A DNA stretch of 41,093 nucleotides. Source: Paenibacillus sp. (GTDB lineage: Bacteria > Bacillota > Bacilli > Paenibacillales > NBRC-103111). Location: assembly GCA_029239545.1 (NCBI GenBank), contig JARBUQ010000001.1, positions 1 through 41,093 on the forward strand, read 5' to 3'. Under the pieces are notes generated by a model, which was not told the DNA's origin, did no database searches, and saw nothing but the letters and a program-made list of their open reading frames with translations. Shown in pieces: positions 11 through 18,224 of this stretch; position 1 is the stretch's first letter, and every line of letters begins with the position of its first letter. A program made the translations under genes and the position numbers.

Positions 11-49
11 GCAGGATTCATTTTGTATCCATCGAATTAACTATATAAT
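11..49 (+). promoter_or_regulatory. SigH-type promoter upstream of cas5c (AGGA-N17-GAAT), plus a nearby TATAAT
   Basis: GCAGGA at 11-16 and GAAT at 34-37 with 17 nt between AGGA and GAAT, preceded by an A-tract, as in Bacillus SigH promoters such as spoVG; TATAAT at 44-49. Confidence 0.6.
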
Positions 50-152: not shown

Positions 153-809
153 ATGGGATTTGGAATCAGATTGAAGGTCTGGGGCGAATATGCTTGCTTC
201 ACCAGGCCGGAAATGAAGGTTGAACGAGTCAGCTATGATGTAATGACACCTTCCGCAGCAAGAGGGCTGCTCGAATCCATTCATTGGAAGCCAGCTATCA
301 GATGGGTTATCGATCGTATTCATGTTTTGAATGAAATTCGCTTTGACACGATCAGGAGAAATGAACTAGAAAATAAAATTTCCCCTCGTCTCGTACAAGC
401 GGCTATGAAATCGGGGATGAGCCCTTTATCCCAACTTATTACAGAAGAACGACAGCAAAGAGCAACCTTACTGCTCAGACAGGTTGCCTATGTCATTGAG
501 GCTCATTTTGTCCTCACGGAGAAAGCAGGGGGAGAAGACCTTCCTGAGAAGCATTACGGTATGTTTTTACGGAGAGCCAGGCAGGGGCAGACATTCCATC
601 AACCTTACCTTGGCTGTCGGGAATTTGCTGCCAATTTTGAAATTCTTGAGCCTAAAGATGCATGTCCAAAATCCTATTATTATGAGATTTCTGACAAGGA
701 TTTGGGCTGGATGTTGTGGGACCTTGATTATGAGGAGGAGATGACGCCGCAATTTTTTCGCGCAGCGATGCGCCATGGAATTGTCGAAATTCCAGACCTT
801 AAGCGGTGA
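153..809 (+). CDS. cas5c: Type I-C CRISPR-associated protein Cas5c (Cas5d), crRNA-processing endoribonuclease
   Basis: Motifs VWGEYACFTRPEMKVERVSYDVMTPSAARG, IHWKPAI, EKH and QPYLGCREF; AGGAGG RBS. Confidence 0.97.
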   Translation: MGFGIRLKVWGEYACFTRPEMKVERVSYDVMTPSAARGLLESIHWKPAIRWVIDRIHVLNEIRFDTIRRNELENKISPRLVQAAMKSGMSPLSQLITEERQQRATLLLRQVAYVIEAHFVLTEKAGGEDLPEKHYGMFLRRARQGQTFHQPYLGCREFAANFEILEPKDACPKSYYYEISDKDLGWMLWDLDYEEEMTPQFFRAAMRHGIVEIPDLKR

Positions 810-821
810 GGTGGGGAGTTC

Positions 822-2645
822 ATGATTATTCAAGCTTTATACGAACGGTACGAGTACCTGCTGCAGGATCCTGCTTCCCCAATATGTGAGCCTTATTTCT
901 CAATAGCCAAAGTGTCCTATGTACTCGAAATTTCAGCTGATGGTGACCTGCTCAAGGTGATAGATCTAAGAAAGCGGCAGGGGAAAAAATGGGTGTCCCT
1001 ATCCCTTCATGTGCCGGAGCAATCAGCAAGGCAATCGAATTTCAAGCCTTATTTCTTATGTGACAAGGTTGAATATTTGCTTGGATACTACATAAGCGAA
1101 GCGAAGCTCGAAGAAGCCAACCGCAAGTTCAGCCTAAGTAGGGAGCTGCATCATTCCATCTTGGCTCATTGTGAGGGAGAGGAGGCTCGTGCGGTTCATT
1201 CGTTTTTCGATCAGTGGAATGCAAGTAAGGTGAGAGAGGTTCGCGCGCTTCAACAGCATATGTCTGGTTTGGATTCAGGTATGGATCAAGTATGCGTGTT
1301 CCGACTGGAAGGCAAGCAATCATTTATTCACGAGCATGACTCTGTTCGACAAGGCTGGATTGCCAGTCAGGAGCAAGCAGACAGCGATTCGGATATGTTA
1401 GGGCAGTGTCTGGTTACAGGCCATTCGAATGTAAGGATCTCACGCATTCACGACAACAAGATCAGGGGAGTCAAAGGGGCACAGCCAAGCGGCGCGGCGG
1501 TTGTCTCTTTCAACAAGCAATCCTTTGATTCCTACAATAAAGAGCAGAGCTACAACGCTCCAATTAGTCGTGAAGTAGCATTCGGGTATACGACAGCGCT
1601 TAATGATCTATTAGCTTCTGATCTGAATTGTATTCGTGATATAGGAGATATGACCATTGTATTCTGGACTACGGGTCCTGAGGCTAAGGCTGCAGAGCAA
1701 GTGTTCAGGGAAGGGATTATTGGCAGCAATCCATATGAGGAATCGGGGCTTGAGGAGTTTACGACGACAACAACAATTGCTGCGATGAGGGATGTGCTGT
1801 TCCACATCAGAAGGGGCAAGCCCATAACCAACATCAGTCTGCCTCCGAATGGAGTCCCCTTCCATGTGCTTGGATTATCGCCTAATAACGCAAGACTCTC
1901 AATCCGATTTCACTGGGAGGGAGGGTTCGGTTCCATGCTGCGGAAGCTGATAGAGCATAGGGCTGACTTGGAGATTGTGCAGCCGGAGCAGTTTCTCTAC
2001 CCCTCAATTTCACGTATATTGGCTGAGACCACCCGCACCGGACTGGATGGCAAGAAATCAGGAGCAGGTGTTTCTCCGGCTCTTGCTGGAGACTTATTCG
2101 CTGCTGTAGTTACTGGAAAGGGATATCCTTACTCCCTCTATGTATCCATTATGAATCGAATCCGAGCCGATCTGAATGTCAGTTCCATTCGCGCCTCAAT
2201 CCTCAAGGCTTACTTGGCCCGGTATGCAAGAATCCATCAGATTGAATCTGTGAAGGAGGTTTTGTCCGTGAGCTTGAATAAGTCCACTAACAGTTCACCT
2301 TATCGATTGGGTCGCTTGTTCGCCGTTCTTGAGCGTACGCAGTTGGAGGCATCAGGGGGATATAACAAGCTGAATACCACGATTAAGAATCGTTATTTCT
2401 CTGCAGCATCTGCAACGCCGGCAGCAGTGTTCCCTATGCTGCTCAAGCTGTCTCAGCATCATATATCCAAAGCCGATTACGGACAGTTCCGGGATCGAGA
2501 GATTCAGGAGATATTGGGGCCGATTGAGGTGTTTCCAATTCGACTGGATATGAATCAGCAAGGGATGTTCATGCTCGGCTACTATCATCAGAAGCAAGAT
2601 TTCTTCTCAGGCAGCACAAAGGCAGAGGTCAAGGTAGCAGAGTAA
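822..2645 (+). CDS. cas8c: Type I-C Cascade large subunit Cas8c (Csd1)
   Basis: MIIQALYERY start, FLCDK, CLVTG, VSFNKQSFDSY, LGLSPNNARLSIRF, YRLGRLFAVLE, FMLGYYHQ; lies between cas5c and cas7c. Confidence 0.96.
   Translation: MIIQALYERYEYLLQDPASPICEPYFSIAKVSYVLEISADGDLLKVIDLRKRQGKKWVSLSLHVPEQSARQSNFKPYFLCDKVEYLLGYYISEAKLEEANRKFSLSRELHHSILAHCEGEEARAVHSFFDQWNASKVREVRALQQHMSGLDSGMDQVCVFRLEGKQSFIHEHDSVRQGWIASQEQADSDSDMLGQCLVTGHSNVRISRIHDNKIRGVKGAQPSGAAVVSFNKQSFDSYNKEQSYNAPISREVAFGYTTALNDLLASDLNCIRDIGDMTIVFWTTGPEAKAAEQVFREGIIGSNPYEESGLEEFTTTTTIAAMRDVLFHIRRGKPITNISLPPNGVPFHVLGLSPNNARLSIRFHWEGGFGSMLRKLIEHRADLEIVQPEQFLYPSISRILAETTRTGLDGKKSGAGVSPALAGDLFAAVVTGKGYPYSLYVSIMNRIRADLNVSSIRASILKAYLARYARIHQIESVKEVLSVSLNKSTNSSPYRLGRLFAVLERTQLEASGGYNKLNTTIKNRYFSAASATPAAVFPMLLKLSQHHISKADYGQFRDREIQEILGPIEVFPIRLDMNQQGMFMLGYYHQKQDFFSGSTKAEVKVAE
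2268..2645 (+). CDS. cas11c: Cas11c small subunit from an internal in-frame start in cas8c (125 aa)
   Basis: AAGGAGG at 2253-2259, 8 nt before an in-frame GTG at 2268, just ahead of the YRLGRLFAVLE domain; internal Cas11 translation is established for type I-C. Confidence 0.8.
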   Translation: MSLNKSTNSSPYRLGRLFAVLERTQLEASGGYNKLNTTIKNRYFSAASATPAAVFPMLLKLSQHHISKADYGQFRDREIQEILGPIEVFPIRLDMNQQGMFMLGYYHQKQDFFSGSTKAEVKVAE

Positions 2646-2724
2646 CGGACAATGCGTCAAGAACCTGCGTGTGCTGAGAAAGAGCCTGACACAACACAAT
2701 TGAAAGTGAAAGGGGGATTATAAG

Positions 2725-3609
2725 GTGACGGATAAGAGAGACCGGCATCAAGCATTGGATAGACGCTTTGATTTCTCGCTCTTCTTCGATGTCAAGGACG
2801 GTAATCCAAACAGTGATCCAGATGCAGGGAATATGCCGCGGATCGATCCGGAGACCGGGCATGGAATTGTGACGGATGTATGCCTCAAGCGAAAAGTGCG
2901 CAATTATGTAGAAATTGCAAGGGAGCAGGCGGAGGGCTGCAAAATCTATGTGACGGAAGGGGCGGTACTAAACGAGAGGAATCGCATGGCATACCGCTCC
3001 TTACGACCCGCGGATGCAGATAAACCGGAACTGGCCCCCAAGGACCGCACGGAAGCGAAACATTTGACCCAGTGGATGTGCGACAACTTCTATGATATTC
3101 GCACATTCGGAGCGGTTATGAATACACGAGTGAATTGCGGACAAGTGAGAGGACCGGTTCAATTCACCTTCTCTCGCAGTATCGAGCCTATCTTCTCCCA
3201 GGAGGTGACCATTACCCGTCAGGCCGTCACCAAGGAAGGAGAAGACAAGGAGCGCGAGATAGGACGCAAGCACATGATTCCTTATGCGTTATACCGTATG
3301 GATGGTTTTGTATCGGCGTACTTGGCCCGTAAGACCGGCTTCACTGCGGCGGATTTGGATTTGCTGTGGGAAGCTATCTCCAATATGTTCGAGCATGACC
3401 GTTCTGCATCGCGGGGGATGATGACAGTCAGAAAGCTCGTTGTATTCGAGCATGAGACAGGCCTCGGCAATGCGCACGCCCACCACCTGTTCGAGCGGAT
3501 CGCCGCAGAACGGATATCAGAGGGGCCTCCCCGATCCATTCAAGATTACAAGATTCATGTAATGAAGGATCATATTCCTTCGGGTATTAAGATCAGAGAG
3601 ATATGCTAG
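2725..3609 (+). CDS. cas7c: Type I-C Cascade backbone Cas7c (Csd2)
   Basis: DGNPNSDPDAGNMPRID, TDVCLKRKVRNY, FYDIRTFGAVM, GQVRGPVQF, MFEHDRSASRG motifs. Confidence 0.97.
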   Translation: MTDKRDRHQALDRRFDFSLFFDVKDGNPNSDPDAGNMPRIDPETGHGIVTDVCLKRKVRNYVEIAREQAEGCKIYVTEGAVLNERNRMAYRSLRPADADKPELAPKDRTEAKHLTQWMCDNFYDIRTFGAVMNTRVNCGQVRGPVQFTFSRSIEPIFSQEVTITRQAVTKEGEDKEREIGRKHMIPYALYRMDGFVSAYLARKTGFTAADLDLLWEAISNMFEHDRSASRGMMTVRKLVVFEHETGLGNAHAHHLFERIAAERISEGPPRSIQDYKIHVMKDHIPSGIKIREIC

Positions 3610-3620
3610 CTGAACAAACA

Positions 3621-3758
3621 GCCGCTTCATTTTCGGCACCTCGCGTGGGGAACCGCGCGAGGTGCCGAAAGCGGAAGTGTGGATTGAAACCAGGTTATGC
3701 CTAAGTGTATGTATAAACGTATCAAGTCGCTCCCCGTCAGGGGAGTGTGGGTGTTAGA
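3621..3758 (+). CRISPR. Type I-C mini-array: modified repeat 1 (3621-3690), one 35-nt spacer (3691-3725), 3'-degenerate repeat 2 (3726-3758)
   Basis: Repeat 1 ends in GTGTGGATTGAAAC, the I-C 3' end; repeat 2 begins GTCGCTCCCC-GTCA-GGGGAGTGTGG, an I-C hairpin; spacer CAGGTTATGCCTAAGTGTATGTATAAACGTATCAA; starts 11 nt after the cas7 stop. Confidence 0.9.
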
Positions 3759-3769
3759 ATAGCGGAACG

Positions 3770-3807
3770 GCAAAAGCGTCATCCTCTGGAGGATGGCGCT
3801 TTTGCTT
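3770..3807 (+). terminator. Intrinsic terminator closing the cas/mini-array transcript
   Basis: GCAAAAGCGTCATCCTC-TG-GAGGATGGCGCTTTTGC inverted repeat with one G-U pair. Confidence 0.8.
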
Positions 3808-3861
3808 GTGGTCTTAACTTTGAAAGGAGAAGGAAACTCACAACTGAAAAGATGAATCATT

Positions 3862-3899
3862 AGGCGCCTGCTCCCTTACTGGGATCGGGGGCCTTTTTT
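3862..3899 (+). terminator. Second intrinsic terminator-like hairpin
   Basis: AGGCGCCTGCTCCC-TTACT-GGGATCGGGGGCCT imperfect stem followed by a T-run. Confidence 0.6.
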
Positions 3900-4162
3900 G
3901 GTCCTTCAGTCAGGGACTGCCCATTCCTGAGCGGTTCTTTGTGTGCAGATCGAAGGATACAAACATACCGTTCAAGCTTAGGTATTTAGACAAGCAACGG
4001 CTGAGGTGTTCTAGTACAGGCTTAGGTACAGGGGCATGGGTCGAAGTGATGAGGCATAAACCCTTGCCGTACAACGCTTGCAGCTTGTCCATACAGTGTG
4101 CCGGCAAGCTATTTTCATCTTGATTCGGGTTTATTTCGTTCCATTCGATCTACTTGTCCTGT

Positions 4163-4200
4163 GATATAAGATTTTACATCAACTTGGACATATCCTGGAA
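4163..4200 (-). promoter_or_regulatory. Partial protospacer with TTC PAM for the mini-array spacer, upstream of the polysaccharide operon
   Basis: Minus strand reads TTC-CAGGATATGTCCAAGTTGATGTAAAATCTTATATC; 24 of the first 32 positions are identical to the spacer without gaps. Confidence 0.85.
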
Positions 4201-4277
4201 GGATGAGAATAAGATGATAGTGTAAAAGCAATTTTTCAATAGGATCAGAAACAAGTCGAACGAAGGAGAAATCGCGG

Positions 4278-5045
4278 ATGGAATTTGAATTGGGCAGCAT
4301 TGTGAAACTTGTAAGGCGTCGGTTGTGGTTCATCACCACTTTGTCGATTGCTGCGCTTGCTTTTGCCTGGTACATCAGCTACTACGTGTTGAAGCCTGAG
4401 TATGAGGCGACCGCGTCTTTGCTCATCCAAGGAGACAGACAGCAGCAAGCCGTGAATGACATTGTGGCCGGACAAAAGCTGGTTACAACTTACGGTGAGA
4501 TTATTCGAAGCAACCGGATCGCGGAAGAGGTGGTGAAACGTCTGGATCTCGACATGACACCGCAAAAGCTGCTTACCAAAATCAAGACAAGGACGAGCAG
4601 TGAATCATTGCTCACGACGGTAATCGCCACAGATTCCGATCCAAAGAGGGCGAGTGATATCGCAAATGGTTTTGCCGAGACGTTCTATGGGAATATCCGG
4701 TCCATCATGGGTGTGGACAATATTCTGTTCCTGGATCAAGCCAAGGTGCCGTCCGAGCCCATTCCGGTTACACCCAAGCCATTCTTCAACATGGTGGTTG
4801 CCTTCGGACTTGCTCTTGTCGCGGGAATCGGAATATCGATTGTGCGGGAGATGATGGACAAAACCGTCAGCAGTACAAAGGACATCGAGCTTGAGCTGCA
4901 GCTGCCGTTATTAGGCACGGTCGGGAAGCTGAAGCCGCGCAAATGGAGGCGCAAACTGCGCAGACATAAATCCTTAGAAGGGGAGAGCGAATATGAGAAA
5001 GAGGATACCTCGATTGTACTGCCAGGCCGAACCGAAATCAGCTAA
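4278..5045 (+). CDS. Wzz/CapA/EpsA-type chain-length regulator (tyrosine-kinase modulator)
   Basis: N-terminal TM, PEYEATASLLI, PVTPKP followed by a second TM, LPLLGTV; AAGGAG RBS. Confidence 0.92.
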   Translation: MEFELGSIVKLVRRRLWFITTLSIAALAFAWYISYYVLKPEYEATASLLIQGDRQQQAVNDIVAGQKLVTTYGEIIRSNRIAEEVVKRLDLDMTPQKLLTKIKTRTSSESLLTTVIATDSDPKRASDIANGFAETFYGNIRSIMGVDNILFLDQAKVPSEPIPVTPKPFFNMVVAFGLALVAGIGISIVREMMDKTVSSTKDIELELQLPLLGTVGKLKPRKWRRKLRRHKSLEGESEYEKEDTSIVLPGRTEIS

Positions 5046-5721
5046 TGCGGAGCTGTTCCGTGCGATTCGGACTAATATTCGCTATACCCGGGTAGGCGGC
5101 GAGATCCGCTCGATATTGGTCACAAGCTCTCTTCCCGGGGAGGGCAAATCGACAGTAGCCGTTAACCTCGCTGTCGCTATAGCGGAAACCGGAAGAACGG
5201 TGCTGCTCATTGATGGGGACCTGCGCACTCCCGCGGTTCATGAGGCCTTTGACCTGCCTAACATTACCGGCTTAACAAGCATCCTCGTGGATCAGGCCAA
5301 GCTGGCGGATTGCGTGTATGAGATCAGGGATTCGCCAGGACTATGTGTTCTGCCCTCTGGCCCGTTATCTCCGAATCCTGCTGAACTGCTCGGCTCTAAT
5401 GGGATGATGCATCTGCTCGCTGAGCTTCATGACAAGTGGGACACCTTGATTATCGATGGCTCGTCGGTTCTGCTGCCTTCCTCAGATGCGTTGATCCTGT
5501 CCTCTATGACAGAGGGAGTGCTGCTTGTCGTTCAATCCGGCAAAGTGCTGCAGAAGCATACGAACAGTGCCAAGCTATTGCTGGAAAAGCAAGGCGCCCA
5601 CCTGTTAGGAGCCGTGTTGAACAGAAAAGGCCGGAGCAGCAAAAAAGGCGATAACAAAAGCTATGCGATCAGTGGAGAAGACTTCGCATCGTGGGCTTCC
5701 TCGGCAGGGAAGGACAGATGA
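4993..5721 (+). CDS. CpsD/CapB/EpsB-family bacterial tyrosine kinase
   Basis: AELFRAIRTNI, Walker A SSLPGEGKST, LLIDGDLR, PNPAELLGS, LLGAVLN. Confidence 0.92.
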   Translation: MRKRIPRLYCQAEPKSANAELFRAIRTNIRYTRVGGEIRSILVTSSLPGEGKSTVAVNLAVAIAETGRTVLLIDGDLRTPAVHEAFDLPNITGLTSILVDQAKLADCVYEIRDSPGLCVLPSGPLSPNPAELLGSNGMMHLLAELHDKWDTLIIDGSSVLLPSSDALILSSMTEGVLLVVQSGKVLQKHTNSAKLLLEKQGAHLLGAVLNRKGRSSKKGDNKSYAISGEDFASWASSAGKDR

Positions 5722-6956
5722 CCTTTCTGGCTATCCGTTATTTGCTCGGCAGCATCGTCTATGCGGGAGCTCAGTTCGTTATTGTGAGTTTGTTGAACAA
5801 ATTCGGCTCTACTGAGCACATCGGACAATATGCACTCGGACTCGCCATCACGGCTCCAATCTTCATGCTGTCGCATCTGCACCTGCGTTCAGTCTGGATC
5901 GTGAATTCGTCCGGCAAGCATACGTTCGGATCCTACATCGGTCTTCGCTGGCTAACGAGTGCCGCTGCGTTCTCCATCACGGTTGGCATAGCACTCTTAG
6001 GCGGATTCGACCGTAATACGAGTCTGGTAATTGTCCTGATCAGCACGTATCGATTTATTGAATCGATCAGCGACTTGCTGCTGGGAGTTTGTCAGAAGCA
6101 GGAGCAGCTGGATTCGATAACCTTCTCCAGAATATCCAAAGGCATCATATCCACGATTAGTTTCATTCTGGTATACATACCGACACAAAGCCTTATTCTG
6201 TCGTTGCTCACCATGATTATCGGGTGGTTCTGTATTATGCTCGGGTACGATTTCCGCAAGGCACGCCAACTGGTAGCAACCCGGCCTGTGTTCGCTTATA
6301 AGCAATTAAAACCGCTCGTTCGCGCAAGCGCTCCGCTGGGCATCGTGCTTGCGCTCATGTCCTTGAATGCGAATATCCCTCATTATTCGATTGCTTACTT
6401 CAGGGGACAGCATGATCTTGGGGTGTACGCTTCACTCGCTTATATGATTGTAGCTTGCAACGTGGTAGTAACGGCACTTGGCGAGGCGTACACACCACGT
6501 CTGGCAAAATGGTTCACCGAAGGCCGGTACTCCCTATTTGTCCGTTTACTAGTCCGGATGATCACGATGGGGGTTCTGCTTGGCGGTTTGGGATGTATAG
6601 GGGGATGGGCATTTGGAACGGAGCTGCTCACCTTGTTATACAATCGCGAGCTTGCTGCCGAGATGGAGGTGTTCTTATGGATGCTGCTCTCGACCTTACT
6701 CATCTTTGTTTCATCATTCCTGTGGTATGGCATCACGGCAACCCGAACCTTCAGCCTGCAAATTCCCCTTTTTCTGTGTACTGCGGGGAGTAATGCGGCG
6801 GCCTGTCTCCTGCTTGTTCCGCGTTATGGCTTGGTGGGAGCTGCTGCCGGCACGATGGTTTCCTTGCTTGTCCAGACGGGAGGGAGTGTGCTGTTGTTGA
6901 TTTACGCAATGAATAAGGAAAAAAGAAGAGTAAATGGGGAAGCAGCAGCGGCATAA
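5718..6956 (+). CDS. Wzx-type polysaccharide flippase
   Basis: Many TM segments, GQYALGLAITAPIF, LGVYASLAY, LVPRYGLVGAA; ATG overlaps the upstream stop (ATGA). Confidence 0.88.
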   Translation: MTFLAIRYLLGSIVYAGAQFVIVSLLNKFGSTEHIGQYALGLAITAPIFMLSHLHLRSVWIVNSSGKHTFGSYIGLRWLTSAAAFSITVGIALLGGFDRNTSLVIVLISTYRFIESISDLLLGVCQKQEQLDSITFSRISKGIISTISFILVYIPTQSLILSLLTMIIGWFCIMLGYDFRKARQLVATRPVFAYKQLKPLVRASAPLGIVLALMSLNANIPHYSIAYFRGQHDLGVYASLAYMIVACNVVVTALGEAYTPRLAKWFTEGRYSLFVRLLVRMITMGVLLGGLGCIGGWAFGTELLTLLYNRELAAEMEVFLWMLLSTLLIFVSSFLWYGITATRTFSLQIPLFLCTAGSNAAACLLLVPRYGLVGAAAGTMVSLLVQTGGSVLLLIYAMNKEKRRVNGEAAAA

Positions 6957-6990
6957 CAGCTGGTGCAGCTTCCTCGAATTGGGGGATAAG

Positions 6991-8265
6991 ATGTCGTCCT
7001 TGTATTTAGCATGGAACACGCTTCGCAAAAATGATACAAAACGGATCAAATTCACAACCGGATCGTTATTCCAGATTGCGGTTGCAGGGTATGTCGTATG
7101 CTTGCCTGCTCAATTCGATTTTGGAGGTGCATTCCGCTTTGCCCCCTCAGACATGTTCCTGCTTATCGGGCTGTCCGCAGCGGGCATGCAGCTCAAGATC
7201 GATCGCCGCATGTTCAGCTCCTGGCACTGGGGGATGCTGCTGATCTTCTTATTCGCATCCTTCGTAGCGATGTGGCAGAACGGGTTTATATCCAAATATG
7301 CCTTGCTGCAAAAGGATTTTGGATTCGTTCTGCTCCTGCTTACCTACATCATGCTGACTCAAGCGGTGGATAGCTGGGATCGATTGTACCGTTTGCTGAG
7401 GATATTCCTGCTCAGCGTTCTGTGGATGAACGCAACTGCATTATTCGCCTTCTTCAGCGGTGTGCGTGTTCCCTTCATGGTGCAGGATGGCCGGTTATCC
7501 GGCATGTTGATTGATCCGAATGCATACGGCGGTCTACTCGTTACGGCCTTTGCTGTCCATATTATGACGAGCGGCGGCTCGAGACGGCTGCTCAGCGGAT
7601 GGATGAGCCAGCTTGCAACCTTGACGCTGTCAGGTGGAATTGTGATAACCTTCTCACGCTCCTCCTGGATCGGGCTTTTCCTCATCTTAATGACACTCTC
7701 GATTGTGAAGCCGGCTCGCCTGATCAAGGTAGGACTTGGCTTTGCAGCAGCCTTCACGGTGCTGCTTATATACAAGGGCCCGGCTTATCTGGACATCCTG
7801 AGTTCGATGGCGAGTCGGCCTTCGCAGATTCAATCACGGCTTGATATTCTCACCAAGGCGTTCGAGTGGATCGCCCAGAGCCCGCTTTTTGGCATCGGTC
7901 TGGGGACTTACAATCTCAATCTCGGAATCATCATTCACAATACGCCCATGTGGTTTATAACAGAATTCGGCTTATTGGGTTTCCTTGTGTATGGCGGGTT
8001 CATGGTTTGGTTTTTCTTCATCGGCATTCGCTCATACCAAGCAGCTATGCCTGTGCATCGTCCGGTTATATTAGCTTTTCTGTTGTCACATGCCGCGATG
8101 ATTGGTTTGTCTATGGGCATTGAGGCGCTGTTTCAACGGTACTGGTGGTTCATGATGGCCCTGAATGCAGCATGCATTCGACTTACGGCTTTACCGGGCA
8201 GCGATGTAACGCAAGCTCAAGCAATTTCTACTCATGAAGGGAGGGAAGATCTGCATGCAAGATAG
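6991..8265 (+). CDS. Wzy/O-antigen ligase-family polymerase
   Basis: Polytopic membrane protein with RLSGMLIDPNAYG, TFSRSSW, PLFGIGLG, HNTPMWFITEFGLLG; start chosen after a GGGGG RBS (ORF is open from 6934). Confidence 0.85.
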   Translation: MSSLYLAWNTLRKNDTKRIKFTTGSLFQIAVAGYVVCLPAQFDFGGAFRFAPSDMFLLIGLSAAGMQLKIDRRMFSSWHWGMLLIFLFASFVAMWQNGFISKYALLQKDFGFVLLLLTYIMLTQAVDSWDRLYRLLRIFLLSVLWMNATALFAFFSGVRVPFMVQDGRLSGMLIDPNAYGGLLVTAFAVHIMTSGGSRRLLSGWMSQLATLTLSGGIVITFSRSSWIGLFLILMTLSIVKPARLIKVGLGFAAAFTVLLIYKGPAYLDILSSMASRPSQIQSRLDILTKAFEWIAQSPLFGIGLGTYNLNLGIIIHNTPMWFITEFGLLGFLVYGGFMVWFFFIGIRSYQAAMPVHRPVILAFLLSHAAMIGLSMGIEALFQRYWWFMMALNAACIRLTALPGSDVTQAQAISTHEGREDLHAR

Positions 8266-9490
8266 GACTGGCGTTCCACTTAAGGCAGCATGGGTAGCAT
8301 CGATCTATAGACACTTTACCGGTTTCCATATTCCTTATATGAAGCTGCTGCAGCAGAAGGGCTGCGAGGTGCACGCCTATGCGCAATCCGGTGAAGGACG
8401 GGAGCAGCTCGAAGCGATAGGAGTAATCTGTCACGATGTCCCGATTTGCCGCAGTCCGCTTCGCAAGGAGAACCTGAAAGCTCTCGCGATGCTAACGGAC
8501 AGCTTCCGCCAAGAGAAGTTCCAGCTCGTACATGTCCACACGCCGGTTGCTGCACTTCTGGGGCGAATCGCAGCGAGAAGGGCCGGCGTACCTTGTACGA
8601 TTTATACGGCTCATGGCTTCCATTTTCACAAGGGGGCACCGCTGCTGAACTGGCTCCTCTATTATCCGCTCGAAAGAATGATGGCGCGATGGACGGATAT
8701 CTTGATCACTATGAATGGCGAGGATTGGGAGCGGGCCTTGAACTTCAAGGTACAGGGGAAGGTGGTTTACGTCCCGGGTGTAGGGATTGATCTTGAAGCC
8801 TATGGGGGGAAGCTGGAGGACAATCCGAACGGAAAACGCGATGCCAGGCGCAAGCTGAACCTGCCACATCTTCAGAATCAGACTCGGGATGCTTACATCG
8901 TGCTCTGTATAGCGGAATTGAATGCGAACAAGAATCAGAGGCAGTTGATCGAGGCATTAGGAGAAGCGGGTACTCAAGGAAGCGACATCCACCTCGTCCT
9001 AGCGGGAACGGGGCATCTGGAAACAGCGCTGATCTCACTGGCAGAGCGGCTGGGTGTGCAGGATCGGGTGCATATGCTCGGATACAGACGAGACATCCCT
9101 GATCTGCTGCAAGCTTGTGATGCGGTAGCCCTTTTATCCCATCGCGAAGGGCTGCCGCGAGCGATTATGGAGGCTATGGCGGCGGGTAAGCCAGTGCTGG
9201 GCACCCATATTCGCGGCATTCGCGACCTGGTGGCCGAAGGCGTCTCAGGCATTCTGGTTCCTGTCGGCGATAACACTGCGACAGCGGATGCCCTTATCCG
9301 TTTGCGTAATCAGCCTGCGCTGTCGGGCAGAATGGGAGCCGCAGGTCGTGCGCGATTAGTTGACTACAGCTTGCCATCCGTGATGCAGGAGATGGATGTG
9401 ATTTATTCCGATGCGCTGCGAATAAAAGCAGAAGATGAAGCGCCCGCTGCCCAGCCCGTATCGGTAGTGCCACGATCAGGAGAGCATTAA
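8255..9490 (+). CDS. Glycosyltransferase family 4 (EpsD-like)
   Basis: HVHTPVAA, YTAHGFHF, GYRRDIPDLL, EGLPRAIMEAMAAGKPV. Confidence 0.93.
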   Translation: MQDRTGVPLKAAWVASIYRHFTGFHIPYMKLLQQKGCEVHAYAQSGEGREQLEAIGVICHDVPICRSPLRKENLKALAMLTDSFRQEKFQLVHVHTPVAALLGRIAARRAGVPCTIYTAHGFHFHKGAPLLNWLLYYPLERMMARWTDILITMNGEDWERALNFKVQGKVVYVPGVGIDLEAYGGKLEDNPNGKRDARRKLNLPHLQNQTRDAYIVLCIAELNANKNQRQLIEALGEAGTQGSDIHLVLAGTGHLETALISLAERLGVQDRVHMLGYRRDIPDLLQACDAVALLSHREGLPRAIMEAMAAGKPVLGTHIRGIRDLVAEGVSGILVPVGDNTATADALIRLRNQPALSGRMGAAGRARLVDYSLPSVMQEMDVIYSDALRIKAEDEAPAAQPVSVVPRSGEH

Positions 9491-9610
9491 TCTGTTTTAG
9501 GATCCGAGCTTCTGTCCAATTCTTGTCACTTGTAAGCGGCGTGCCAACATGCAGTCTATGGACGCCTGGTTGTTGTTGTGGAAATCATTCGGTCGATGAG
9601 GGTGAAAGAA

Positions 9611-11554
9611 ATGGTCATTAAGACTCGTCTAGTGCGCTTGGCTTTGTTGGATGCGGCAATTGTGGCAGCTTCTCTGTGGTTCGTATTCTCGCTTCGGTTT
9701 GAGTTCGATATCCCTGTGATGTACTTGCACATGCTCCCCTATGCGATTTTGATCCATGTAACGGTGCACACTATTTGCTTCTTCGGGTTTCGAGTGTATC
9801 ACAGCATATGGCGCTACACCGGTATCGAGGAGATGGTATTGCTGCTAAAAGTAAGTGCGCTGACGTTCGCAGGTGTGCTTGCCGCGAATATGCTTGCGCA
9901 TCTTATCGTGCCTTCTTATCGTCTGCCGCTGTCGATTTATTCTGCCGCAGGTTATGTATTCCTCGGTATCGCAGGTTCACGCATGATCAGTCGCCTGCTG
10001 GGCGACCAATTCATGAGAACGAAGGAGCCGCTGACCGAGGGAGCTAAGCTGTTGATCATTGGAGCGGGCAAGGCAGGAATCCTGATCGCCAAGGATATCA
10101 AACATTCTAGATTCAAATTCATGACCCCCGTTGCTTTTGTAGATGATGATCCGGCTAAGCAAAATTTGGAGATTATGGGTTTGCCCATCGTCGGTACACG
10201 CAGTCATATCCCTGAAGCAGTTAAGCGGATGAATATTGACTATATCGTAATTGCTCTCCCAGCTGCCTCTCGCCAGGCGGTAACGGACATTCTCGAAATC
10301 TGCAAATCTACTAAAGCTCAGATCAAGCTGCTGCCCAGCATGTCGGATATTTTGAACGGCAAAATGTCGGTCAATATGATTCGCGAGGTGTCTGTGAACG
10401 ATCTGTTAGGACGGGCGCCCGTTGAGATTAATGGCAAGGAAATCCGGGAAAGCCTGGAGCATGAAACCGTTCTGATAACCGGCGCTGGAGGCTCGATAGG
10501 CTCGGAGCTATGCCGTCAGGTAGCGATGTACAAACCGAAGGAGCTGCTGCTTGTCGGCCACGGGGAGAACAGTATTTATTTGATCGAGGGCGAGCTTCGC
10601 AGGCTGTTCCCGAGTCAGTCCGTACATGCCATTATCGCAGATATTCAGGACATATCCCGAATTGAAAGTGTATTTCACAGCTATCGGCCTACGCTAGTCT
10701 ACCATGCTGCCGCGCATAAGCACGTTCCGCTTATGGAGACGAATCCGGCTGAAGCCATCAAGAATAATGTCCTCGGCACACGTAATGTTGCGGCGGCGAG
10801 TGACAAGTACGGGGTCAAACGTTTCATCCTCATCTCCTCCGATAAGGCGGTCAATCCTACAAGCATCATGGGAGCGACCAAGCGCATTGCTGAGATGATC
10901 GTCCATGATATGAATCTTTCCAGTAAAACAGCCTTCGCGGCCGTTCGTTTCGGCAACGTGCTTGGCAGTCGGGGCAGTGTAATTCCACTGTTTCAGAAGC
11001 AGATTGAGGCAGGGGGGCCTGTAACCGTGACTCACATGGATATGGTCCGCTACTTCATGACCATTCCGGAAGCGGTACAGCTCGTTATTCAGGCCAGTGT
11101 GCTAGTGCAAGGCGGCGAAGTATTCGTGCTGGATATGGGCAAGCCGGTTCGCATATATGATTTGGCCAAAGACTTGATCCGCTTGTCGGGACTTGAGCCG
11201 GAGAAGGATATTCCGATTGTGGTCACTGGCATTCGGCCAGGGGAGAAGCTGTACGAAGAGCTGCTTACGGAAGAGGAAGGGCTTATGGTTACGACCAACG
11301 ATCGGATCATGGTCAGCCGACCCGCAAATATTCCGCGTTCGGAGCTCATGATGGTTCTCGGGATTCTGGAGAATCTGACGAAGAGGTATGAAGTTGCAGC
11401 AGGCAGCTATCAAGTGAAAAAACTGCTCAAGCAGCTCGTTCCAAGCTACCTCGGTGTGCAGGAGGAGCCTCCATCTGTGGAGCCAGATCGTGATCGGGAG
11501 CGCGAACGCGAACAACGTGAACGGGTGAAGGTAGAGCTGCATGCTGGAACATGA
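9611..11554 (+). CDS. CapD/EpsC/PglF-family UDP-GlcNAc 4,6-dehydratase
   Basis: N-terminal TMs, GAGKAG, TGAGGSIGSELCRQ, HAAAHKHVP, SSDKAVNP, VRFGNVLGSRGSV. Confidence 0.95.
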   Translation: MVIKTRLVRLALLDAAIVAASLWFVFSLRFEFDIPVMYLHMLPYAILIHVTVHTICFFGFRVYHSIWRYTGIEEMVLLLKVSALTFAGVLAANMLAHLIVPSYRLPLSIYSAAGYVFLGIAGSRMISRLLGDQFMRTKEPLTEGAKLLIIGAGKAGILIAKDIKHSRFKFMTPVAFVDDDPAKQNLEIMGLPIVGTRSHIPEAVKRMNIDYIVIALPAASRQAVTDILEICKSTKAQIKLLPSMSDILNGKMSVNMIREVSVNDLLGRAPVEINGKEIRESLEHETVLITGAGGSIGSELCRQVAMYKPKELLLVGHGENSIYLIEGELRRLFPSQSVHAIIADIQDISRIESVFHSYRPTLVYHAAAHKHVPLMETNPAEAIKNNVLGTRNVAAASDKYGVKRFILISSDKAVNPTSIMGATKRIAEMIVHDMNLSSKTAFAAVRFGNVLGSRGSVIPLFQKQIEAGGPVTVTHMDMVRYFMTIPEAVQLVIQASVLVQGGEVFVLDMGKPVRIYDLAKDLIRLSGLEPEKDIPIVVTGIRPGEKLYEELLTEEEGLMVTTNDRIMVSRPANIPRSELMMVLGILENLTKRYEVAAGSYQVKKLLKQLVPSYLGVQEEPPSVEPDRDREREREQRERVKVELHAGT

Positions 11555-11587
11555 CTCGTGCAGCATGCGCTTAAGCAGGAGGCGGTC

Positions 11588-12688
11588 ATGAGCAAACGAT
11601 GGAAATTCAGTGTGATCGGGCTGATTATCTTGTTGGTTGGCGTGGGGAGCATGCTGTACGGATTAAGCCCGCAGCGGCATTTTCGCTCGGGTGCTCCGAA
11701 GGCACTGGCCATGCCGCAGCCGATTCCGCACGATTGGGGCAAGAGCGAATACGTGTCGGATGATCAAGCTACAGAGGAGGACAACGAGCTGGATGAGCCC
11801 CTTGCTCGCTCTGACGAATCAGCAGTCCCATCCGATCAGACGCACACCAGCCATACTACATCAATAGCAGCTGCACCAACCCCGGCTGCTTCAACGAATT
11901 CCAAATCGACCCACTCAGCCAATTCCTTCAATGTCGTATTGATTGGAACAGATACGTGGGGAGAAGAGGGCTCGCGGGCAGATACGATTATGGTCGTCCA
12001 TGTGATGCCGAACAGCCGCAAGGTCAATATCGTATCGATTCCAAGAGACACCAGGGTGTACGTCCAGGGCGTAGGTTACACGAAGATCAACCATGCCCAC
12101 AGCGTAGGCGAAGCTAAGGGCGGCAATCATCAAGGAACGCTGACGCTCGCGCAGGCGGTCAGTGATTTCCTGAACATTCCGGTCCATCACTACATCAAGA
12201 CGAATTTTGCCGGAGTCAGCAGCTTCATAGATAAGATTGGCGGAATTGAGATGTACATCGAGCAGGACGTTACGATTACACCGGAGATCGTGATTCGGCA
12301 AGGTGACCAGCATCTGGATGGACAGCATGCTTTGTTCCTGGCACGGGAGAGGTATTCGGTTCCAGGGGGCGATTTTGGTCGTCAGATCGCGCAATTCCGC
12401 ATTGTTCGGGCCGTAGCCAGACAATTGCTGAAGCCGGAGCATCTCCCCGATCTTGCTGCCCTTATTAGCAGCGGGAGGCAGGATTTGATGGACACAAGCT
12501 TCAGCGATTCGGACTTAATCAGCCTGGCCTGGTTGTTCAAGGGGATGGACACGGAAGACTTTGCATATGAGCAAATACCTGGGAAAGACAGCAGCGGGCC
12601 TGATCCCCTCGTCGGAAGCGATGTGTATTACTGGAGCGCAGATCCGGTGCAGGTCCGGTCAATTCGGGAACGGATGTTTAACTCATAG
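11588..12688 (+). CDS. LCP (LytR-CpsA-Psr) family glycopolymer transferase
   Basis: Single N-terminal TM, RADTIMV, SIPRDTRV, KINHAH, ARERY, GDFGR; AGGAGG RBS. Confidence 0.92.
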   Translation: MSKRWKFSVIGLIILLVGVGSMLYGLSPQRHFRSGAPKALAMPQPIPHDWGKSEYVSDDQATEEDNELDEPLARSDESAVPSDQTHTSHTTSIAAAPTPAASTNSKSTHSANSFNVVLIGTDTWGEEGSRADTIMVVHVMPNSRKVNIVSIPRDTRVYVQGVGYTKINHAHSVGEAKGGNHQGTLTLAQAVSDFLNIPVHHYIKTNFAGVSSFIDKIGGIEMYIEQDVTITPEIVIRQGDQHLDGQHALFLARERYSVPGGDFGRQIAQFRIVRAVARQLLKPEHLPDLAALISSGRQDLMDTSFSDSDLISLAWLFKGMDTEDFAYEQIPGKDSSGPDPLVGSDVYYWSADPVQVRSIRERMFNS

Positions 12689-12728
12689 CGGCAACATGGT
12701 CACATGTAAAAGGTTAAGGAGGAGTTCG

Positions 12729-13361
12729 ATGTACCGTATGCTCAAGCGAAGCTGCGATATTGTGGGAGCCATTATCTTATTATGTATTTTCTCACCCGTT
12801 ATGGCTGTAGTGGCCCTGCTCATTCGCATTAAATTAGGAAGCCCGATTTTATTCAAGCAGCAAAGACCCGGTTTGGCAGAGCGTCCCTTTGAGATTTATA
12901 AGTTCCGTACAATGGCCGTCCTGTATGGACCGGATGGCGAGCTCTTATCCGATGAGTGCAGGTATAGCAAATTCGGGGGAGTGATCCGCAGATTGAGCCT
13001 CGATGAGCTGCCGCAGTTCCTCAACGTATTGAAAGGGGATATGAGCCTGATTGGACCGCGCCCGCTGCTCATGAGGTACACCCCTTATTATTCCGAGAGG
13101 GAACGGCTTCGGTTCACAGTAAGGCCAGGTGTTACTGGACTCGCCCAAGTATCAGGACGCAATAAACTGTCATGGAATGACCGGCTATCACTGGATGTAA
13201 CCTATGTGGAACAGCTTAGCTTCCAACAGGATTTTCGCATTCTATGGAAGACCGTACAGAAAGTTGTTCGTCAGGAGGATGTAGTTGAGAATCCCAGCCT
13301 GCATGACCTTCCGTTGGATGCCCACAGGCTGCAGCTGCAGGCGAGGGAGGGCTCCGTATGA
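12729..13361 (+). CDS. Priming phosphoglycosyl transferase (EpsL/PglC family)
   Basis: KRSCDI, FKQQRPG, YKFRTM, SLDELPQFLNVLKGDMSLIGPRP, RPGVTGLAQV; AAGGAGGAG RBS. Confidence 0.95.
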   Translation: MYRMLKRSCDIVGAIILLCIFSPVMAVVALLIRIKLGSPILFKQQRPGLAERPFEIYKFRTMAVLYGPDGELLSDECRYSKFGGVIRRLSLDELPQFLNVLKGDMSLIGPRPLLMRYTPYYSERERLRFTVRPGVTGLAQVSGRNKLSWNDRLSLDVTYVEQLSFQQDFRILWKTVQKVVRQEDVVENPSLHDLPLDAHRLQLQAREGSV

Positions 13362-14164
13362 AGGTGCAGTTCCGCCCGCTCGACTCTGACAAAGATATTC
13401 AGAAGGCATGCCGCTTATTGAGGGACTCCATGCCAGAGAGAGAATACAACCGAACGATCTTCTCCTGTTCCGGGTATCCGCAATATTTGCGGGCCGCGTT
13501 CTGGTGCCGCACCCACGCAGCAACTATGCTGATTGGCGCTTATGACGGGGAGCATCTGATCGGCTTCGCGGAATGGAGGAGACTGGAAACTCAGTTCGTG
13601 CTCAACAATCTGAACGTGGATGCGGCTTACCGCAGCTATGGGATAGGGAGCCGCCTGATTGCATACGGGGAAGAGCTTGCTCTAAAGGAAGGGGTAGGGA
13701 CGCTTACACTCGATGTGTTTGCCTGGAATGAGCATGCTTATGAATGGTATAAGAGGCTGGGCTTCGTGGAGACCAATCGCACTTATTGGTATGAGAGAAG
13801 TCTTTATTCGAGGGGGAACTCACCAGTTATGGACAGTGTGCCTCCATACATAGTAGAGGACTTTCCGATGGCGGAGGCCCATCATGCCGCGTACGGCTTC
13901 TCTTCGCTTCGAATCAGAATGCAGCGAGGGACCATACAAGTCGGGCGACTGGGGGCATCGTATTACCGGCTTCAGACACAGAACGGAGATTGGGATTGGA
14001 ATGGCTCGCTTATAGCGGCTTTAACAGATCTGGATCCAGAGCGCAGATTACTGCTGTTATCTCCCGATGCCGGCTTGGCTCAATGCGACAGTGGACTGGT
14101 TATGATCAGCGAAAGCGTGCGGATGAACAAGAAGCTGGAGGAACGGGCGGTGTATTATGGATAA
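13358..14164 (+). CDS. GNAT-family N-acetyltransferase with C-terminal extension
   Basis: VDAAYRSYGIGSRL acyl-CoA motif, N..AYEWYKRLGF. Confidence 0.8.
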   Translation: MKVQFRPLDSDKDIQKACRLLRDSMPEREYNRTIFSCSGYPQYLRAAFWCRTHAATMLIGAYDGEHLIGFAEWRRLETQFVLNNLNVDAAYRSYGIGSRLIAYGEELALKEGVGTLTLDVFAWNEHAYEWYKRLGFVETNRTYWYERSLYSRGNSPVMDSVPPYIVEDFPMAEAHHAAYGFSSLRIRMQRGTIQVGRLGASYYRLQTQNGDWDWNGSLIAALTDLDPERRLLLLSPDAGLAQCDSGLVMISESVRMNKKLEERAVYYG

Positions 14165-15260
14165 CTTCGAGGTGCTGGATAGCTCTAATAAAAGGGACTG
14201 GGATCATTATCTGAGTTTGATGACAGACAAGGATATATATTTCACCTCTGAATATTGCCGGTTATACGAGATTGAGGGCGAGCAGAAGGCGGAGCTGTTC
14301 GTTTACAAGCGGGACGGGAGGTTGATCCTGTATCCGTACCTGCTTCGTTCGATTCATAATCTTGAAGTTATGCGTGAGCTGGGTATAGGGGGAGATTGGT
14401 ATGATATCAGCACCCCTTACGGCTATGGGGGCCCCATTACCGATGCACCATCAGGACCGGAGCGGGAAGCCTTATTCCGCAGCTTCAATGAAGTATTCAC
14501 TGCTTATTGCCGGGAGCGCTGCATTATAACAGAATTCGTAAGGTTTCATTCCTTGCTGGACAATGTGTTTGATTATAGTGCAGTTGAGTCGCAATTAAGC
14601 CGCAATACAGCATTCATTGATTTGACTGTTGGCTCCGAATCAGAGCTGATCCAGCGGTATTGCCGTAATCATAAGACGAATATTCGCAAGTGGAGCTCGT
14701 CTCCTCTAACGATTCGTCATTCAAGTCAGTTCGCTGATCGAATGGACGCTTTTACCCAGCTGTACTATGGTACCCTTCAGGATTTGCAGGCAGACTCCTT
14801 TTATTATTTTCCGCGGAGCTTCCTGGAGGACACACGCCGCTTGCTGGAAGGCCGTTTGGAGCTGTTTGAAGTGATGCACGGGGAGACAGCTATAGCGGCC
14901 TGCCTGATTATGCATGAATTTCCGCGAATGCACTATCATTTGAGCGGTTGGAATCGGGACTATCTGCATTGGGCACCAACCAAGATGCTCATTCATGCCG
15001 CCGCGCTCTGGGGAATGGAAGCAGGCTTCGAGAAGTTCCATCTGGGCGGGGGGTATAGCGGCAATGACAGCCTGTATCAATTCAAGAAAGGCTTTGGCAC
15101 GAACAATGAGCTTGACTATTATTTGGGCAAACGCGTGTTTTTCCCTGAGCTGTATGAGCAAATCCGGACACAGGGACCCCTGGCTGTACAGGATAGCGCG
15201 TATTTTCCCATTTATCGACATCCACAATTCAGGACAGGTTCGGTCCCTTCACCCCATTAA
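14157..15260 (+). CDS. FemAB-like double-GNAT acyl/aminoacyl transferase
   Basis: DISTPYGYGGP, EFVRFH, YYFPRSF, HYHLSG, FHLGGG, LYQFKKGF. Confidence 0.8.
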   Translation: MDNFEVLDSSNKRDWDHYLSLMTDKDIYFTSEYCRLYEIEGEQKAELFVYKRDGRLILYPYLLRSIHNLEVMRELGIGGDWYDISTPYGYGGPITDAPSGPEREALFRSFNEVFTAYCRERCIITEFVRFHSLLDNVFDYSAVESQLSRNTAFIDLTVGSESELIQRYCRNHKTNIRKWSSSPLTIRHSSQFADRMDAFTQLYYGTLQDLQADSFYYFPRSFLEDTRRLLEGRLELFEVMHGETAIAACLIMHEFPRMHYHLSGWNRDYLHWAPTKMLIHAAALWGMEAGFEKFHLGGGYSGNDSLYQFKKGFGTNNELDYYLGKRVFFPELYEQIRTQGPLAVQDSAYFPIYRHPQFRTGSVPSPH

Positions 15261-15294
15261 ATGAATGAATAATCGGAAGGAATGTGAGCAGCAC

Positions 15295-16473
15295 ATGGTA
15301 GACAACAGCCAGCAGCCACGCATTTATTTGTCCCCCCCTCATATGAGCGGACGGGAAAAGGAATATATGAACGATGCTTATGATTCCAACTGGATTGCTC
15401 CTCTTGGGCCTCATGTGGATGCTTTCGAAAGGGAAATGGCGGAATATACCGGAGCCGCAGGAGCGGTGGCCCTGTCATCAGGAACGGCTGCTATTCATCT
15501 GGCGCTGCGTCTTGCAGGCGTAGGACCGGGTGATCGTGTCATTTGTTCGACGTTAACCTTTGTCGCGAGTGCCAACCCTATTCTGTATGCAGGGGCGGTG
15601 CCTGTATTCGTTGATTCGGAGCCGGAGACGTGGAACATGTGTCCCCTTACGTTCGAGCGGGCTTGCAGGGAAATGAGTGATCAGGGCTTTCCGGTTAAAG
15701 CAGCCATAGTCGTTAATCTGTACGGACAAAGTGCGGATCTGCAGTCCATCATAGAGGTTTGTGAACGATACGGAATCGTCCTTATAGAAGATGCAGCTGA
15801 GTCTCTGGGGGCTACATATAACGGGAAGGCAAGCGGGACATGGGGGCGTTACGGGATCTATTCCTTCAACGGGAACAAGATTATTACAACGTCAGGCGGA
15901 GGAATGCTTGTATCCGACGATCTTGAAGCCCTCGAGCAGGCGAGGTTCTGGGCTACTCAAGCAAGAGATGCAGCAGCCCATTACCAGCATTCCCAGATGG
16001 GATATAACTATCGGCTAAGCAATCTGTTAGCGGCGGTTGGTCGCGGGCAGTTGGAGCAGCTGGACGATCGTGTCCAGGCCAGACGCCGTATCTTCGAGAG
16101 ATATAGGGACAGGCTAGGGGAGATCCAGGGCATTCATTTCATGCCAGAAGCACCGTTTGGCCGCAGTACTCGCTGGTTGAGCGCTATTACGATTGATGAA
16201 GGGGAAGTGGGAGTATCGGCCGTACCGATTCTGGCCAGCTTGGCCCATCATAATATTGAAGCAAGGTCTGTGTGGAAGCCGCTCCATCTGCAGCCGTTGT
16301 TCGCCAGATCCACCTATTTCCCCTATTTTGAGGGATACAGTGTAAGTGATCAATTGTTCGCAAATGGCATTTGCCTGCCCTCCGGAAGCTCCTTGACGGA
16401 GGAAGAGCAGGCGCGTGTCATTGAGACAATCGAGACTTGCATTCAGAATTGGAAAAGTGTTATACGCCGTTAA
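15295..16473 (+). CDS. DegT/DnrJ/EryC1/StrS PLP aminotransferase (EpsN/PglE-like)
   Basis: IYLSPPHM, SSGTAAIHLAL, IEDAAESLG, SFNGNKIITTSGGG, GYNYRLSN, LPSGS; alternative start at 15265. Confidence 0.95.
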   Translation: MVDNSQQPRIYLSPPHMSGREKEYMNDAYDSNWIAPLGPHVDAFEREMAEYTGAAGAVALSSGTAAIHLALRLAGVGPGDRVICSTLTFVASANPILYAGAVPVFVDSEPETWNMCPLTFERACREMSDQGFPVKAAIVVNLYGQSADLQSIIEVCERYGIVLIEDAAESLGATYNGKASGTWGRYGIYSFNGNKIITTSGGGMLVSDDLEALEQARFWATQARDAAAHYQHSQMGYNYRLSNLLAAVGRGQLEQLDDRVQARRRIFERYRDRLGEIQGIHFMPEAPFGRSTRWLSAITIDEGEVGVSAVPILASLAHHNIEARSVWKPLHLQPLFARSTYFPYFEGYSVSDQLFANGICLPSGSSLTEEEQARVIETIETCIQNWKSVIRR

Positions 16474-16480
16474 CGATCGA

Positions 16481-18121: not shown

Positions 18122-18153
18122 AATCAATCACTCCTTTTTCTATAATTCTTGTA

Positions 18154-18182
18154 TATGTTATGAAAATATTAAAGAGACGTGT
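18154..18182 (-). promoter_or_regulatory. SigK-type promoter for the beta-helix gene
   Basis: Minus strand ACAC-N16-CATAACATA, matching AC-N16-CATANNNTA. Confidence 0.6.
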
Positions 18183-18224
18183 AGGACGAACAACACGGTC
18201 TCAGACAAAGCGAGGTAAAACAGG

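Follow-up and report, generated by a model that had tools for sequence, protein, structure and literature searches.

Repeat 1 of the type I-C CRISPR locus at the start of this window (the whole stretch of 41,093 nt from Paenibacillus sp. that was analysed) is interrupted by a long hairpin and is followed by a single spacer, in a locus with no adjoining cas3. The question is what the hairpin does, and what a Cascade with one guide and no nuclease beside it might be for. The features that bear on it are collected in Table 1.

Table 1. Features of the cas locus, its mini-array and the neighbouring polysaccharide operon (positions in the window).
Feature	Position	Strand	Details
Predicted promoter of the cas operon	13..37	+	AGGA-N17-GAAT; same motif upstream of cas5 in G001 and of the mini-array in G002
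cas5c	153..809	+	H44, K133 and H134 are matched by identical residues in the alignment with D. vulgaris-type Cascade structures (8dex)
cas8c	822..2645	+	TIGR01863, 430 bits
Predicted internal Cas11c start	2253..2645	+	AGGAGG site, then in-frame GTG at 2268
cas7c	2725..3609	+	TIGR02589, 342 bits
Repeat 1 (70 nt)	3621..3690	+	5' arm 3621-3628, 3' arm 3674-3679, handle 3680-3690; predicted cut 3679/3680
Inserted copy of a REP-like palindrome (hairpin)	3631..3672	+	Ends uncertain by a few bases
Single spacer, predicted guide	3691..3725	+	35 nt
Degenerate repeat 2	3726..3758	+	Intact stem, decayed handle
Terminator-like hairpin with T-rich tail	3770..3810	+	Predicted end of the cas/mini-array transcript; -28.2 kcal/mol; absent from a consensus scan
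Protospacer	4163..4197	-	24/35 identical to the spacer; mismatches 5, 10, 12, 17, 18, 24, 27, 29, 33-35
TTC PAM	4198..4200	-	Next to the protospacer
Conserved bipartite motif, predicted polysaccharide promoter	4184..4211	+	Boxes 4184-4192 and 4205-4211
Wzx/Wzy-type surface polysaccharide cluster	4278..20230	+	Gene calls and family matches

The genes cas5c, cas8c and cas7c all score over curated cut-offs and lie in one run with a repeat (11 nt after cas7c), the spacer, the degenerate repeat and the terminator-like hairpin. The internal Cas11c start site is found in this genome (G000), in its congeners G001 and G002, and in G016. The promoter predicted upstream of cas5c is presumably sigma-H-like, going by the consensus. 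A complete type I-C locus carries cas3 and cas4-cas1-cas2 besides the effector genes; here the effector genes are present, and no cas3, cas4, cas1 or cas2 adjoins them, with none 3' of cas7c. No cas3 or cas1 scores over cut-off in this assembly, which is 69% complete and whose contig begins 152 nt 5' of cas5c, so that a cas3 elsewhere or further upstream is possible. The 98% complete G002 also has no cas3 or cas1 over cut-off; its assembly, searched in all but 3404 bases, holds one cas7c and one repeat handle, and repeats may have been left unassembled. G001 has cas3 and cas4-cas1-cas2 at a separate locus, with a complete second I-C system and more than 400 repeats, and a DUF559 gene lies upstream of its operon-linked cas locus. 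The operon-linked Cas5c of G001 (L016, 1867-2541) has a Leu at the expected position of the catalytic Lys; given this, and the second complete system, its guide may be processed in trans.

Two other sequences may bear on this locus. P0002, a Cas8c encoded on a 160-kb contig, is 74% identical to that of the window and likely belongs to a further member of the system. Contig C322 of this genome starts with two canonical I-C repeats (1-101; L099), either an array remnant or a truncated array, and its spacers have no strong self-target.

Repeat 1 has the stem and 11-nt handle of a type I-C repeat, with an enlarged loop. The original prediction gave its sequence and coordinates correctly, and the hairpin is present as described: its two 18-nt arms (3631-3648/3653-3670) are 94% complementary, with a single U-G pair, and enclose a GGAA loop. 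The G-U pair said to be common to both repeat stems is seen in repeat 2 too. A 40-nt hairpin was thought to have replaced a 4-nt loop; the insertion is real, but the stretch between the arms is 45 nt long (3629-3673). The 70-mer is predicted to fold as a 6-bp repeat stem bearing an inner hairpin of 18-19 bp, with the 11-nt handle unpaired (-46.7 kcal/mol, z = -7.4, as stable in 0 of 200 shuffles). The predicted cut site agrees with the Cas5c rule (PMC8524198), and the hairpin would, as had been predicted, remain at the 3' end of the cas transcript after the cut, because the repeat begins 11 nt past the cas7c stop. A near-identical contig (record 1 of run X1) spans 2700-4274 without gaps and differs in 3 letters, and X1 may be the source sample itself. 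No Rfam family reaches its gathering score over 3500-4400, and a plasmid search with repeat 1 gave no full-length match.

The hairpin is a member of a dispersed intergenic family of REP-like palindromes. BLAST finds close copies in the same genome on contigs C211, C298 (truncated) and C81 (loop deleted). A covariance model built from five copies, two of them from this genome and hence matching by construction, has 22 matches here, at 19 places, among 46 candidates scored out of 557, and at least one match in 31 of 136 genomes of the family. Seventeen of the 19 places lie outside ORFs of at least 100 aa, compared with 195 of 1200 random 44-mers. Further copies had been proposed as something to look for, and an nhmmer profile of the 12 best places, run without a shuffled control, gives 50 hits at about 43 places in the 69%-complete assembly. 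A pattern requiring exact arms hit only 4 of the 136 genomes, an underestimate that the covariance model corrected. Look-alikes on C470, C65, C45, C5 and C134 were rejected, since none of them forms the hairpin and all are within ORFs or next to them. A further intergenic copy of the family is present at 27415-27453 of the window, within a longer inverted flank, and the palindrome is strongly amplified in G006, where 44 of 46 scored candidates match (e.g. L103, C36:7084-7127) and no Rfam family is assigned.

REP-type elements are dispersed palindromes of about 40 nt, intergenic, in tens of copies and patchy between species, and the hairpin family resembles them in all of these respects. Unlike them, it shows no GTAG-type foot (the flanks of the copies inspected by eye read TT(C)..GAA(A)) and matches no Rfam family at gathering score, and a search in this incomplete genome found no tie to a Y1 transposase: the one PF01797 gene has no palindrome arm in its 2-kb locus, and the nhmmer palindrome profile has no hit on C88. 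With neither the foot nor a transposase tie found, the family is called REP-like rather than REP.

The homologous first repeats are plain and free of the hairpin, 31 nt long in G001 and 29 nt in G002. Runs X1, X5 and X6, from three studies, contain contigs of a close relative whose repeat shares the 5' arm, has a loop of 4 nt and follows the window sequence again from 3673; on one 2171-nt contig of X6, pieces of cas7 are followed in order by this junction, and 3673-3736 differs at 5 positions. Removal of the 38-nt core in silico leaves a 32-nt repeat, and 32 nt is the canonical length for type I-C (PMC8524198). In B. halodurans, as described in the same paper, Cas5c depends on the stem base and the UGG past the cut, not on the pentaloop, and its cleavage follows no ruler. 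Since these are the parts that Cas5c reads, a 45-nt loop insert should be tolerated, and because the stem base and handle survive, processing of repeat 1 probably persists. The hairpin is thus very probably a passenger insertion in the loop.

The original prediction gave the insert a role of its own: it could stabilise the cut cas mRNA, and an alternative CCGCTT/AAGCGG register could tune processing, which would amount to a throttle on guide production. After the cut the hairpin would indeed occupy the 3' end of the cas mRNA, and the alternative register is only 2.4 kcal/mol less favourable than the canonical one, reaching a probability of 0.46-0.59 in 2 of 24 folding windows, both short; three of the nine shorter windows give the canonical register a probability of 0.40-0.53. 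With realistic upstream context (the 15 windows beginning at or before 3601), however, the alternative register stays at or below 0.18 in all, with canonical stem pairs at 0.80-0.99, and it appears to be a minor fold that arises at the insertion junction rather than a tuner of processing. The insert is also absent from all three homologous repeats seen. Its GNRA cap is present as claimed, but only one of five aligned palindrome copies has such a loop, so that it appears incidental, and covariation among the five copies is not above that in shuffles. A stabilising side effect is possible, but we see no sign of selection for it. The prediction had itself named the outcome that would tell against it, a common REP-like insert lacking from homologous loci, and that is the outcome we find; co-option of the insert is improbable, and as a passenger the hairpin is of minor interest alone. 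It offers a natural test of the loop size that Cas5c tolerates, and is a reminder that array finders may miss repeats interrupted in this way.

The spacer suggests a function for the locus. Its best matches in the genome are two sites at 24/35, and only one of them, the protospacer of Table 1, is flanked by a TTC PAM; without the PAM requirement an unrelated site equals it. The target is reached 438 nt further downstream, and 78 nt separate its PAM from wzz. It ranks first among 188,149 TTC-flanked sites (24/35; the next best has 21), and none of 5000 shuffled spacers exceeds 21 in the intergenic region. The upstream box of the conserved motif falls within the protospacer, and the PAM lies between the two boxes. 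This upstream box is present in seven of seven close homologous operons and the downstream box in six, with a one-base variant in G001. Conservation of the boxes points to a promoter here and to the kind of sigma factor that would serve it; a sigma-70 scan found no site at the target or at the mini-array. In this genome, the 152 nt that precede cas5c show no target for the guide.

The operon behind the target is of the wzz-wzc-wzx-wzy type with an LCP ligase. Its cluster encodes wzz, wzc, a flippase, a polymerase, a GT4 glycosyltransferase, a dehydratase, an LCP protein and a likely priming transferase, as well as two GNATs, an aminotransferase, an epimerase, an acyltransferase and a minus-strand gene resembling pectate lyases. 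The latter (16481-18121) opposes the cluster, and does so in G001 and G002 as well. Between the terminator and the target the window has about 330 nt (3810-4160) more than G001, with no second copy in the genome, and a second terminator-like hairpin lies at 3863-3900. The predicted promoters of the cas genes, of the G002 guide and of the target (4185-4210) share an (A/T)GGA-N17/18-GAAT shape, with equivalents in L016 and L018. Were a single sigma factor to serve guide and target alike, polysaccharide expression would come as a pulse, which is speculation.

The same pairing recurs in the two congeners. In G001 the gene order is the same and the guide matches the target over positions 1-24 except at 6 and 12, next to a TTC PAM. 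In G002 the guide matches over 1-16, again except at 6 and 12 and with a TTC PAM; there the guide precedes wzz and has a promoter-like motif of its own, and 16 kb separate it from the Cascade genes, which lie at the opposite end of the cluster. Guide and target have changed together at positions 3 and 15 (G002) and at 21, the last being outside the stretch paired in G002. Patterns derived from the pairs hit one exact TTC-flanked site per genome, which speaks for the uniqueness of the site and not for its independent discovery. As in mini-arrays of the crlRNA/CreR type, an intact first repeat is accompanied by a degenerate or absent second one, and the partial PAM-proximal match to a nearby predicted promoter is clean in G001 and G002 and degraded at 5, 10 and 17 in this genome.

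A handle-plus-guide pattern run over 401 genomes of the order hits G000, G001 and G002, together with a single one-mismatch hit in G049 that has no repeat stem; diverged guides would escape such a pattern, since it was built from the three known ones. The three genomes are also not independent, all being of one genus. An alignment scan for the wzz locus gave two loci, in Paenibacillus koleovorans NBRC 103111 (L046) and Paenibacillus sp. HJGM_3 (L045), and a single-protein wzz scan of the genome contigs gave no match. The mini-arrays of the two loci read identical to those in G001 and G002, and L046 has the cleanest guide-target pair. Four metagenomic homologues of the operon keep both promoter-like boxes and have TCC, TCT, GCC and GCC in place of the PAM. 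Their flanks, 2.4-10 kb upstream, contain no mini-array or cas genes, though a Cascade placed 16 kb away, as in G002, would be missed in flanks of this length.

Other repeat-like units were seen in related loci. In L018 (G002) tandem repeats of about 50 nt lie between the guide terminator and the target (~13800-14000). A solitary I-C repeat on the minus strand of L019 (~15560-15610, G032) sits in a long cas3-cas5c gap, the typical crlRNA position, and its best TTC-flanked match in the locus is weak (12 of 17 informative positions). Isolated repeat-like units also occur upstream of cas3 or cas5c in L089 (~16750-16790, G073) and L020 (~2956, G016), and L088 (G107:C2) has cas3-cas5c-cas8c-cas7c with no array or adaptation genes within 19 kb.

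Since a one-spacer array matches the predicted promoter in three genomes with no adjacent Cas3, this Cascade is likely to be an RNA-guided repressor rather than an immune system, and from the sequence comparisons we consider it probable that the module represses the polysaccharide promoter in this lineage. It is conceivable that Cascade binds the site and activates the operon, or has some other use there, for instance to stop transcription running in from upstream, as sequence cannot give the direction of an effect and the position of the promoter is a predicted one. A protospacer over the upstream box with the PAM between the boxes is, however, the geometry that represses in the I-C cases described as reporter-tested by Shu et al. 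(bioRxiv 10.1101/2024.12.27.630466), and a terminator-like hairpin already stands between the two units; activation or a read-through block is very unlikely.

An immune remnant would be an old spacer, self-derived or from a phage, stranded after cas3 and the adaptation genes were lost, with no regulation involved. The locus does seem to be derived by loss, because most I-C loci of the family (23 of the 30 read) run on into a cas4-like ORF, and this genome has a second array remnant. Mere decay does not sit well with guide-target co-changes, however, nor with mismatches limited to 6 and 12 in two congeners. The Cascade genes also appear to be under purifying selection in comparison with G001 (pN 0.13-0.28, synonymous sites saturated, similar to the polysaccharide genes). 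As weak negatives, the best phage protospacer has E = 1 and comes from unrelated hosts, and viral contigs contain no exact match to the first 21 nt of the spacer. Finally, the Cascade that G002 retains, at the opposite end of the same cluster, comes from a different branch: a concatenated Cas5/8/7 tree of 11 loci, unrooted and with sparse sampling (G062, which had no cas5 hit, is not in it), groups this Cascade among canonical systems, and a clade of G000, G001 and G002 is rejected (delta lnL 69, p-AU ~2e-67). Because the tree sets G002 apart, the guide-target pair probably persisted through a replacement of Cascade or a second recruitment. A bare remnant is accordingly highly improbable.

Repression of the polysaccharide promoter, if it is the ancestral function, may have weakened in this genome. 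Its guide pairs worst of the three, at 12 of 15 informative positions in 1-17, and the G001 guide would fit this target better (14 of 15). It is possible, though the less expected course, that an ancestral repressor is decaying here, the insert hampering processing, selection on pairing relaxing and the operon escaping control. The sole genome with the insert also has the sole mismatches at 5, 10 and 17, and in the I-B guide CreA single changes at seed positions 5 or 10 abolish repression (10.1101/2023.03.10.532045, Fig. 1E). CreA belongs to another subtype, however, and the guide here pairs further out, with the PAM and distal pairing kept to position 32. All three cas genes also remain intact and retain the catalytic residues as well as the internal Cas11 start, and one case cannot link insert and mismatches; their co-occurrence allows causation but does not show it. 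Whether the repressor module is still active in this genome seems to us evenly balanced.

The proposed repressor would work as follows. The cas genes and mini-array would be co-transcribed, and Cas5c would cut at the base of the repeat 1 stem, so that the guide would carry the 11-nt handle and the cas mRNA would end in the long hairpin. The spacer, which matches the site as observed, would pair next to the TTC PAM over the conserved promoter-like box, and the Cas3-less Cascade would bind without cutting and block RNA polymerase. Repression would probably be weaker here than in the congeners because of the mismatches at 5, 10 and 17. Taken as a whole, a passenger hairpin together with a one-guide, Cas3-less Cascade that represses the adjacent polysaccharide operon is the explanation that we hold to be likely.

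Several known systems resemble this module. The crlRNA/CRISIS loci of Shu et al. (10.1101/2024.12.27.630466) share the solitary or two-repeat unit, the Cas5c cut and the 11-nt handle, as well as pairing of about 16 nt with mismatches at 6 and 12, a TTC PAM and a promoter target. Those loci lie between cas3 and cas5c and target anti-phage genes, whereas here there is no adjacent cas3, the guide follows cas7c (or is apart from it, in G002) and the target is a polysaccharide operon; the main text of that paper does not mention Paenibacillus, polysaccharide or capsul-. CreR/CreA and the regulatory mini-arrays (Liu et al., 10.1101/2023.03.10.532045; Shmakov et al., 10.1101/2023.03.03.530964) likewise have a good first repeat, a degenerate second one and a partial PAM-flanked match in a nearby promoter, and according to both papers Cas3 is dispensable for this type of repression. 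They act on cas genes, toxins or cargo within complete loci, in contrast to polysaccharide synthesis with no adjacent cas3. The module thus differs from CreR proper and CRISIS, which act on a cas promoter or a defence or toxin target in a cas3-bearing locus. Type I-C elements are mentioned by Liu et al. (Fig. S7), and the main text of Shmakov et al. does not mention I-C.

Envelope-related genes are regulated by CRISPR components elsewhere. Francisella scaRNA-Cas9 represses a lipoprotein gene (as cited by Shmakov et al., 10.1101/2023.03.03.530964) and so resembles the module in directing a CRISPR effector with a degenerate guide to an endogenous envelope-related gene; it is a type II single effector that also serves in immunity, unlike the class 1 Cascade here, for which no other guide or nuclease was found in G002. 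In Streptococcus agalactiae a CRISPR RNA lowers the activity of the capsule operon promoter PcpsA (PMC9430516), but the array is canonical, and the abstract of that paper reports no PAM-flanked guide-promoter pair or dedicated effector. The module can also be set beside systems outside CRISPR. TldR proteins are nuclease-dead TnpB repressors of flagellin, alike in that RNA-guided machinery has been retained to repress transcription of a surface trait, and they differ in being transposon-derived single proteins rather than a Cascade. In the literature covered, which excluded subscription papers and supplements that could list such loci, a Cas3-less one-guide Cascade on a polysaccharide promoter is undescribed. 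What is new relative to known I-C and mini-array regulation would be the missing adjacent cas3 and polysaccharide synthesis as the putative target.

A broader reading is offered tentatively. In one genus of the Paenibacillus group, a type I-C Cascade may have been fully domesticated as a single-guide transcription regulator of a surface polysaccharide, the guide-target pair outliving a swap of Cascade, and may double as a tripwire, in which Cascade would be displaced by an anti-CRISPR protein or RNA of a phage, or by crRNAs that compete for it, and a protective coat would be turned on. The class 1 regulatory guides known so far act on cas, toxin or defence genes in immune loci, whereas the predicted target in these Paenibacillus genomes is a surface polysaccharide cluster. 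If confirmed, the module would be a clear case of CRISPR effectors retained for the regulation of host genes instead of immunity.
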